Below, one piece after another: positions 62,801 to 64,000 of a stretch of 64,000 nt of DNA. The stretch comes from Escherichia coli (GTDB lineage: Bacteria > Pseudomonadota > Gammaproteobacteria > Enterobacterales > Enterobacteriaceae): the NCBI RefSeq assembly GCF_001677475.2, contig NZ_CP015229.1, one strand, 5' to 3'. Position numbers: made by a program. Position 1 is the stretch's first letter, and each line of letters opens with the position of its first letter.

Positions 62801-64000
62801 GTCGTCACGCATCGCTGCTTCCAGTTCTTTCAGGTCGATAATGCCGTTACGCTGCGGTGCCAGGTAGGTGACTTCGAAACCTTCGCGCTCCAGCTGACGG
62901 CAGGTATCCAGTACCGCTTTGTGTTCGGTTTTACTGGTGATGATGTGCTTGCCTTTTTTCTGATAAAAGTTGGCTGCACCTTTGATCGCCAGGTTGTCAG
63001 ATTCGGTTGCACCAGAGGTAAAGACGATTTCACGCGGGTCAGCGCCGACCAGATCGGCAATCTGATTACGGGCGATATCAACCGCTTCTTCAGCCTGCCA
63101 GCCGAAACGGTGAGAACGGGAGGCCGGGTTACCAAAGGTTCCGTCCATCGTCATAAACTGCATCATTTTCTCGGCAACACGCGGGTCCACCGGCGTGGTT
63201 GCGGAGTAGTCGAGATAAATCGGTAATTTCATTGCTCTATAAACTCCGTACATCACTCAATGCAAGGAACCAGGCTACCGGCTGGATGTACGACCGTATT
63301 TACGGAGTGTTAAACACTCCGGCCTGATTCTAATATCTTGTTATCTTTAACCTAACTGTTTCGGGTTTCAGCAAGTTGACAAACTTACGAATCTCCGGGA
63401 GCTTACATAAGTAAGTGACCGGAGTGAGTATGTGCAGTCAACGCAGATGCAACACGAAACAGGACGGTTAAATTAAGCGCGTAACTTAACGTCGATCGCG
63501 TCTTGTGTGCGGCTGCGTGGCGCGTCGTGAGTATGCTGACGACCAGACACATCCAGCACTTCCTGGTTATTAACCAGTTCGCCTAAAGTAATGTTGTTGA
63601 GAAAACCGGTGAGACGGTCGCTCAAATCACGCCACAGCGCGTGGGTCAGGCATTTATCGCCGCCCTGGCAGCCGCCTTTACCCTGACAACGGGTAGCATC
63701 TACAGATTCGTCAACGGCGCTAATCACTTCGCCAACGGCGATGCTGCTGGCATCTTTGCCTAACAGATAACCACCGCCTGGTCCACGTACACTGGAAACC
63801 AGACCATTTTTACGCAGACGGGAAAACAGTTGTTCCAGATAAGAAAGGGAAATTCCCTGACGTTCGGAAATATCAGCCAACGGTACCGGGCCTGCTTCGG
63901 AGTTGAGCGCAACGTCCAGCATTGCGGTCACGGCATAGCGCCCTTTAGATGTCAGTCTCATGTCTTACTTCACCTCAAACTCGCCCCTGCCCGGGGTTTT

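Follow-up and report, generated by a model that had tools for sequence, protein, structure and literature searches.

The iscR–iscS spacer of this Escherichia coli genome very probably consists of two independent modules, a copy of the ERIC/IRU repeat (63346-63472, with 2 junction bases) and the canonical 111-nt regulatory spacer (63233-63343). Positions are those of the window, the whole 64,000-nucleotide stretch of contig NZ_CP015229.1 that we analyzed, and the isc genes lie on its minus strand. According to the ORF list and the annotation in matching E. coli genomes, iscR (162 aa) occupies 63473..63961 and ends with the stop codon TAA at 63473-63475, and iscS (404 aa) occupies 62018..63232, starting from the ATG at 63232. 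The spacer between them, 63233..63472, measures 240 nt, as given in a preliminary description made from the sequence alone, which also suspected that it was longer than in K-12. Indeed, the spacer of K-12 MG1655 has 111 nt, and when the sequence was aligned with K-12, an ST131 strain, and an O157:H7 strain, the additional 129 bases fell immediately behind the iscR stop codon, so the spacer is not identical to that of K-12. The length difference (240 - 111 = 129) is made up of the 127 bases of the ERIC, which starts at a distance of 0 from the stop codon, and two extra bases (63344..63345, minus strand) that read GA in isc sense and connect the ERIC to the K-12-like spacer. The same description treated the spacer as one long structured regulatory region, a view that did not hold: the palindromes it pointed out sit in two unrelated modules, and the additional length is due to a common mobile repeat and does not expand the RyhB element. 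We established the identity and the boundaries of both modules; both are textbook items, and to this extent the finding is mostly explained.

ERIC, also called IRU or RU-1, is reportedly a 127-bp MITE of Enterobacterales and vibrios, described by Sharples & Lloyd in 1990 and Hulton et al. in 1991. The core of the insert matches the primer-site consensus GTGAATCCCCAGGAGCTTACATAAGTAAGTGACTGGGGTGAGCG at 36 of 44 positions (63387-63430, plus strand), including 21 consecutive bases without a mismatch. The invariant family core, GAGCTTACATAAGTAAGTGAC at 63399-63419, is the junction of the two standard ERIC-PCR primer sites, whose sequences were confirmed in 233 papers, and it has one exact match in the window. 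From 73 distinct copies collected by an exact-core scan of metagenomic contigs we built a 127-nt family consensus, TATACCC...GTGAATCCCCAGGAGCTTACATAAGTAAGTGACTGGGGTGAGCG...GGGTATA, to which the window copy, TTTAACC...GGTTAAA, aligns end to end with 72% identity. In this alignment the element occupies 63346..63472 on the plus strand in the family-consensus orientation (ERIC1R site, then ERIC2 site), and the isc mRNA, transcribed from the minus strand, carries the reverse complement of that orientation. The terminal inverted repeats (TIRs) form the inverted repeat I1 of 25 nt with 80% complementarity; in the isc mRNA (minus strand) the 5' TIR is UUUAACCGUCCUGUUUCGUGUUGCA (63448..63472) and the 3' TIR is UGAAACCCGAAACAGUUAGGUUAAA (63346..63370).

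The insert is a dispersed repeat. A blastn search of 5,426 complete E. coli genomes with the insert as query gave, at the sensitivity of that method, 33,236 matching places spread over 5,423 of them. The median number of such places in a genome is 7, at 60-80% identity, and 489 genomes have a copy at least 99% identical to the insert. The exact core also occurs at unrelated loci in more than 120 metagenomic contigs. Elements of the ERIC/IRU class are about 127 bp long, intergenic, and have TIRs and TA termini with a target duplication; K-12 has about 30 copies, and 14 further sites are known from other E. coli strains (PMC2229807, PMC3184786, PMC10969869). The window copy shares with them the length of about 127 bp, the conserved central ERIC1R/ERIC2 core, the imperfect palindrome of TIRs that forms a long hairpin, the many diverged copies dispersed in each genome, and the presence/absence polymorphism between strains; it is intergenic, lying between iscR and iscS within the iscRSUA transcription unit, and co-transcribed. 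It differs from them in being fairly diverged (72% identity to the consensus built here) and in its termini, which read TT...AA instead of TA...TA. Hence, both terminal TAs have decayed, and the other defining features of ERIC/IRU are present.

An exact target-site duplication was not recognizable at the insertion site, and each of the several registers that we compared requires at least one extra change. The C-terminal variants of iscR were also compared. E. albertii and some E. coli-like genomes with the exact IscR variant of the window have a 115-nt empty site, TAA|AAGATAAAAAG, which retains the AAGA found beside the ERIC. A model of this 115-nt empty site plus a 123-nt body plus TA gives 240 nt and requires one base change and a 1-nt change in an A run. 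The bases at 63344-63345 probably belong to a decayed TA target duplication or to the junction. We also considered the REP/BIME intercistronic mRNA stabilizers. The insert resembles them as a stable intercistronic hairpin that could block 3'-5' exonucleases and lead to differential operon expression, but REPs are G+C-rich palindromes of 20-40 bp and belong to another sequence family; REP/BIME identity was ruled out by the alignment of a single 127-bp element with the full length of the ERIC consensus.

The iscS-proximal part of the spacer is the known structured element that the preliminary description expected there. In a search of Rfam, the iscRS 'iscR stability element' (RF01517) matches 63234..63343 on the minus strand over the full length of the model (1-110/110), with a cmscan score of 118.8 bits compared with a gathering score of 40 (E = 8e-32). 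Its position between iscR and iscS, its stem-loop architecture, and the RyhB complementarity at the translation start of iscS, with GAGCAAUG at the start codon, all agree with the family; unlike in the family, 129 nt of ERIC and junction here separate the element from the iscR stop codon. The 19-nt palindrome noticed earlier at 63303..63321 is exact (CGGAGTGTT-A-AACACTCCG, 9+1+9) and is the apical hairpin of the RF01517 model. Perfect hairpins with a stem of at least 9 bp have 13 matches in the window (11 distinct), compared with 1.2 expected from shuffles; because hairpins of this size are about ten times as frequent as in shuffles, the palindrome is not considered a chance feature. A second, imperfect palindrome had been placed at about 63398-63411. 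It is real, but these positions are its center only; the full inverted repeat (I2) extends from 63393 to 63424, with 14-nt arms of 79% complementarity and a 4-nt loop, and is the central hairpin at the apex of the ERIC.

Desnoyers et al. reportedly described the RyhB-induced differential degradation of iscRSUA in 2009. We searched the region for RyhB pairing with a windowed duplex scan using the single-stranded core of K-12 RyhB. The best duplex covers 63229/30-63259 on the minus strand, close to the 63225-63260 suggested before, and lies over the Shine-Dalgarno sequence and AUG of iscS with a predicted energy of -23.9 kcal/mol. At its center, GAGCAAUG (63230-63237), which overlaps the iscS start codon (63230-63232), pairs with RyhB CAUUGCUC. 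The predicted pairing is better than in shuffled targets by a modest margin of about 2.5 sd, and the sequence of the site is identical in the window and K-12. An unrestricted duplex with full-length RyhB (-59.5 kcal/mol, RNAduplex) was discarded as meaningless, as it runs end to end and ignores intramolecular structure. In K-12, RyhB triggers cleavage of iscRSUA, and a strong structure in the iscR-iscS intergenic region lets the iscR part of the transcript accumulate (PMC12533949). The location of the predicted site at the iscS start agrees with this published mechanism (PMC12533949).

Folded in isc sense, the ERIC RNA forms one long hairpin with an energy of -45.8 kcal/mol (z = -5.2 compared with shuffles). 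Among 72 family members, 76.7% of the cells in the hairpin alignment are paired, compared with about 40% when the partners are slid by 1-3 columns. Compensatory changes are present in 33 of the 44 pairs, the innermost 5 pairs being invariant by construction since the copies were collected via the exact core, and 0 of 500 shuffles reached the observed values. Across the family, compensatory changes are also found in the central stem at 63393-63424. RNAalifold applied to the family alignment, in which several copies are truncated or mosaic, returned the central 10 pairs only, and covariation of the full hairpin was tested with an explicit structure projected on the alignment. In the fold of the complete 240-nt spacer (-80.9 kcal/mol, z = -4.5), the ERIC hairpin and the iscRS element form separate modules. 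The partition function gives about 38 pairs inside the ERIC and about 3 that join it to downstream sequence. Folding predicts that the ERIC leaves the iscRS hairpin and the accessibility of the RyhB site unaffected: with the ERIC and after its in silico deletion, the pair probability of the apical hairpin is 0.863 and the accessibility of the RyhB core is 0.32.

The long spacer is a minority allele in E. coli. Counting hits that cover at least 80% of a 440-nt query, the filled (long) allele is present in 490 of 5,426 complete E. coli genomes (∼9%), with examples in ATCC 8739, O26, O111, some O103 STEC, and porcine O139:H1 strains. K-12, O157:H7, ST131, and other O103 strains have the short form. 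The K-12 iscR-iscS spacer is thus not the sole architecture in the species, as about 1 in 11 complete genomes, including those of major non-O157 STEC, differ from it, and results on RyhB and IscR regulation obtained in K-12 may not transfer unchanged to strains with the filled allele. The matching RefSeq records contain no annotated feature at the site of the ERIC. Wilson & Sharp reportedly listed E. coli ERIC sites in 2006; we found no mention of the iscR–iscS site in the searchable literature, which did not cover that list. The literature matches that combine 'iscR' with ERIC are ISCR elements in papers on ERIC-PCR typing.

Over the 129 nt, the window, ATCC 8739, and an O26 strain do not differ from one another, and the 0 differences in these three long-form strains are not significantly below the neutral expectation. 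They therefore provide no evidence of selection on the ERIC copy. In the adjacent 111 nt, the window differs from ATCC 8739 and the O26 strain at 7-8 positions, and those long forms differ from K-12 at 13-14, compared with a difference of about 1% in the flanking coding sequence. These differences form two clusters, the 14-nt flank next to the ERIC and the apical hairpin. The flank (63330..63343, minus strand) reads TAACAAGATATTAG in filled and TAAAAAGAATTCAG in empty E. coli alleles, and TAATAAGATATTAG in filled Citrobacter. The apical hairpin is a hypervariable stem with at least three E. coli alleles that carry compensatory changes and assort independently of the ERIC. K-12 has CGGAGTGCTAAATACTCCG, ATCC 8739, O26, O157, and E. 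albertii have CGGGGCGTATCGCGCTCCG, and Citrobacter has CGGGGTGTTCGACGCCCCG; the second of these is common to a filled allele (ATCC 8739) and two empty ones (O157 and E. albertii). The window carries the perfect 9-1-9 palindrome allele, which differs from K-12 iscRS at 3 positions.

We asked whether the ERIC occurs in this spacer outside E. coli, sampling 80 species through IscR. Most of the closest relatives have a spacer of 107-139 nt, and most of the more distant species have one of 20-80 nt. Among the 80 species, only Citrobacter werkmanii has an ERIC in its spacer (242 nt; nhmmer E = 6.5e-18), with position, orientation, and flank (AAGATAATAAGATATTAG) as in E. coli. Identity between the two ERICs is 74%, and measured against the family consensus they have 12 derived positions in common, compared with a chance expectation of about 2-3 according to our own arithmetic estimate. 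Genomes encoding the same Citrobacter-type IscR mostly have an empty 112-nt spacer, and one has the same ERIC with a 49-nt internal deletion in a spacer of 193 nt. In the 16 nt next to the ERIC (63328-63343), the filled alleles of E. coli and Citrobacter differ at 1 position, but filled and empty alleles within a genus differ at 6. Hence, these 16 nt group by allele class across genera, whereas the remainder of the spacer clusters by genus. In other Enterobacteriaceae, the spacer looks like the empty state. The presence of the filled allele at the same site and with the same flank in C. werkmanii points to an old shared allele, and by these sequence comparisons the filled allele is a derived, old haplotype that is a minority allele in both Escherichia and Citrobacter. 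A long-lived polymorphism, recombination between the genera, or repeated loss may each have produced this pattern. With its flank common to both genera, the filled allele is a small example of an old insertion polymorphism with recombination up to its edge. None of the metagenomic ERIC copies that we collected lies downstream of iscR. The idea that long spacers in general are due to ERIC was ruled out, as seven genera have long spacers without ERIC similarity in blastn-short and nhmmer searches: Pectobacterium (252 nt), Brenneria (259 nt), Rahnella (208 nt), Rouxiella (281 nt), Providencia (236 nt), Pluralibacter (170 nt), and Shimwellia (186 nt).

The position of the ERIC directly at the iscR stop codon is a recurrent one. 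We collapsed the metagenomic copies to 43 independent upstream genes and compared the two orientations. When at most 5 nt separate an ERIC end from the stop codon of a long ORF, 12 copies have the orientation seen at iscR and 2 the opposite one (binomial p = 0.013), or 11 versus 2 without the window itself; within 80 nt of the stop codon the orientations are equally frequent (21 versus 22). This bias of 12 versus 2 places the iscR copy in a recurrent configuration that abuts stop codons. De Gregorio et al. are said to have described ERICs at stop codons of Yersinia enterocolitica as translation-dependent RNase E entry sites in 2005. Judging by the orientation bias found here, the iscR-type orientation probably corresponds to the one that they reportedly call 'B'. 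When we folded the RNA with the 9-15 nt past the stop codon covered, as by the footprint of a ribosome, the outer UUUAACC/GGUUAAA stem melted, and the AU-rich 3' TIR and its flank were freed. A ribosome terminating at the iscR stop codon would cover the 5' TIR (63448-63472) in this model. In Yersinia, ERICs inserted at gene 3' ends are reported to reduce the amount of transcript by way of an RNase E site (PMC2229807, PMC3184786, PMC10969869), which is said to lie in the ERIC TIR and to become unmasked (PMC10969869, PMC2229807). By analogy, we infer that the TIR at 63346-63370 corresponds to the TIR with the RNase E site in these elements.

In several respects, the ERIC next to iscR would thus work like a Yersinia-type stop-codon ERIC. 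Like those elements, it abuts the stop codon of the upstream gene in the orientation preferred at stop codons, and it is a long hairpin with a 5' base that a terminating ribosome could open and an AU-rich 3' TIR. It differs in belonging to another species, in being a diverged copy, and in the protective iscRS structure immediately downstream, which is absent in the Yersinia cases. Together, these features suggest the following mechanism. The RyhB switch would operate as in K-12, with RyhB pairing at iscS, degradation of iscSUA, and protection of iscR by the iscRS structure. The ERIC would add a second element to the 3' end of iscR, in the orientation favored next to stop codons. Since it abuts the stop codon in that orientation, translation termination at iscR would bring a ribosome onto the base of the hairpin, melting it and uncovering the AU-rich 3' TIR. 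The exposed TIR could then give access to RNase E and lower the level of the upstream transcript, as reported for the Yersinia ERICs. Most likely, the net effect of the ERIC would be a modest, translation-dependent change in the ratio of the iscR to the iscSUA transcript. Translation-dependent RNase E access is the only proposed function of ERIC elements, and the filled and empty alleles could serve as a natural test case for it in E. coli.

Alternatively, the ERIC could be a neutral passenger, an old selfish or relic element that is co-transcribed and has no measurable effect on iscR or iscSUA. We regard this as a serious possibility and as nearly as likely as a modest translation-dependent effect. 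The element folds on itself, with few pairs to downstream sequence, and its removal in silico changes neither the iscRS hairpin nor RyhB accessibility; it is missing from 91% of the E. coli genomes and most of the sampled Citrobacter-type genomes, one of the latter tolerates the 49-nt internal deletion, and there is no significant excess conservation. However, the orientation of the family beside stop codons is not random, transcript-level effects of such ERICs in Yersinia are reported in reviews, and mRNA decay is unlikely to be wholly unaffected by a hairpin of -46 kcal/mol directly 3' of a stop codon. A more far-reaching version of the translation-dependent effect appears improbable to us. 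In that case, the ERIC would rewire the RyhB-controlled split of iscRSUA, with translation-coupled RNase E cleavage detaching iscR from its protective 3' structure and thereby altering, differently from strain to strain, the dosage of IscR and through it the Isc/Suf switch and the IscR regulon, and the filled and empty alleles would persist in both genera because of that effect.

The insert could also act at the level of transcription, either as an internal promoter of iscSUA or as a terminator or attenuator that uncouples iscR from iscSUA. Other genera have a terminator-like hairpin followed by a T run after iscR, for example Rahnella (L031), and MITEs elsewhere can carry promoters (PMC3184786). 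However, a scan of both strands of 63150-63560 detected neither a sigma-70-like promoter nor a terminator made up of a hairpin and a T run, and the ERIC hairpin is followed by AAAGAUAACAAG and not by a U run, which makes an independent transcription signal highly unlikely. The ERIC is co-linear with the isc operon, carries no promoter- or terminator-like signal, and forms a self-contained RNA hairpin. We give still less weight to the view of the preliminary description that all 240 nt form one RyhB/iscR regulatory structure, expanded in this lineage. The spacer as a whole is strongly structured and contains the known element, but its additional 129 nt are part of a repeat family that occurs at many unrelated loci in many genera, they fold independently, and the best RyhB site within the ERIC has an energy of -13.4 kcal/mol compared with -23.9 kcal/mol at iscS. 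Just as implausible is a product of the insert's own, an antisense or small RNA or a short peptide: reviews mention open reading frames in ERICs (PMC2229807, PMC10969869), and the plus strand at 63346-63468 has a weak full-length similarity to the Vibrio antisense RNA V_AS5 (20.7 bits, E = 0.17), but this score is far below the gathering score of 96 bits, promoter and terminator signals are absent, and the one ORF that reaches into the region (63403..63552, 49 aa) runs out of frame over part of iscR and is no conserved feature of the family. A second Rfam family, CssrA (E = 0.25), also overlaps the ERIC far below its gathering score; as candidate identities we rejected both matches, which we regard as chance or at most a remote likeness to ERIC.

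The apical hairpin of the iscR stability element (iscRS element, RF01517), formed by the exact palindrome at window positions 63303-63321, is hypervariable. Aligning it with the corresponding sequences of other genomes (L001, L004, L206, L207, L006, L007 and L215-L218), we observed compensatory changes spanning several bases; E. coli carries at least three alleles, and another three were seen in Citrobacter-type genomes. These hairpin alleles and the presence of the ERIC repeat in the iscR-iscS spacer assort independently, suggesting that recombination or template-switch (quasipalindrome) mutation has acted on the apical stem. 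One arm of the hairpin (63315-63322, CACTCCGG) is perfectly complementary over 8 nt to the central ERIC stem (63419-63426, CCGGAGTG). This complementarity arises only when this hairpin allele and this ERIC variant occur together, and the pairing had a low weight in partition-function folding.

We also compared the spacers between iscR and iscS in other genomes. A third class with a length of 115 nt (TAA|AAGATAAAAAGTATTCAG...) is present in E. albertii and E. coli-like genomes (L211, L212, L214 and L006), where it directly follows iscR. It retains the AAGA that follows ERIC in the filled alleles, and could represent the site before ERIC was inserted or, alternatively, what was left after its excision. 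In a Citrobacter-type genome (L221:1193-1385), the same ERIC is present between iscR and iscS but lacks 49 nt of its central part, giving a 193-nt spacer; the orthologous site thus holds a shortened form of ERIC. Long spacers are also present in several other Enterobacterales (L028, L029, L031, L036, L053, L008 and L019), namely Pectobacterium (252 nt), Brenneria (259 nt), Rahnella (208 nt), Rouxiella (281 nt), Providencia (236 nt), Pluralibacter (170 nt) and Shimwellia (186 nt), and none of these seven iscR-iscS spacers has similarity to ERIC. Those of Rahnella and Rouxiella contain terminator-like hairpins with T-runs directly after iscR. The iscR-iscS site appears to have attracted different inserts in different lineages.

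Within the Rfam database, the 129-nt model of the Vibrio antisense RNA V_AS5 gave a weak full-length match to the plus strand of the window at 63346-63468 (20.7 bits, E = 0.17). The extent of this match coincides almost exactly with that of ERIC, and V_AS5 may itself be derived from an ERIC-like repeat of Vibrio. The metagenomic ERIC copies (L092:5449-5703; L098, L121, L129, L130, L170, L183; L094, L184) included a tandem pair 122 nt apart and several mosaics, in which another sequence able to form a hairpin (GGGGCCGCTGCAAGCAGCG...TTCAAATC... or ...CGGCCTGCGGCCTCGCCCC...) takes the place of one ERIC half.

The C-terminal tail of IscR is polymorphic (63473-63520, iscR codons 149-151): the window has ...PRSRTQD..., K-12 has PRTRTQD, ATCC 8739 and O26 have PRTRIQD (WP_001241356.1) and K_EC180 has PRPRTQD; the tails of E. 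albertii and Citrobacter show further differences, also in length. The exact IscR variant of the window is accompanied by spacers of 111, 115 and 240 nt. Across 12 kb of the window (52000-64000), the best match among 5,426 complete E. coli genomes reached only ∼98.0-98.5%. The window may originate from a Shigella or from an Escherichia lineage with few sampled genomes. This region includes an IS3-like element of the ISEcB1 family at ∼54.2-55.7 kb, with minus-strand ORFs at 54259-55098 and 55095-55649, which only two genomes among the matches listed carry at the same locus.
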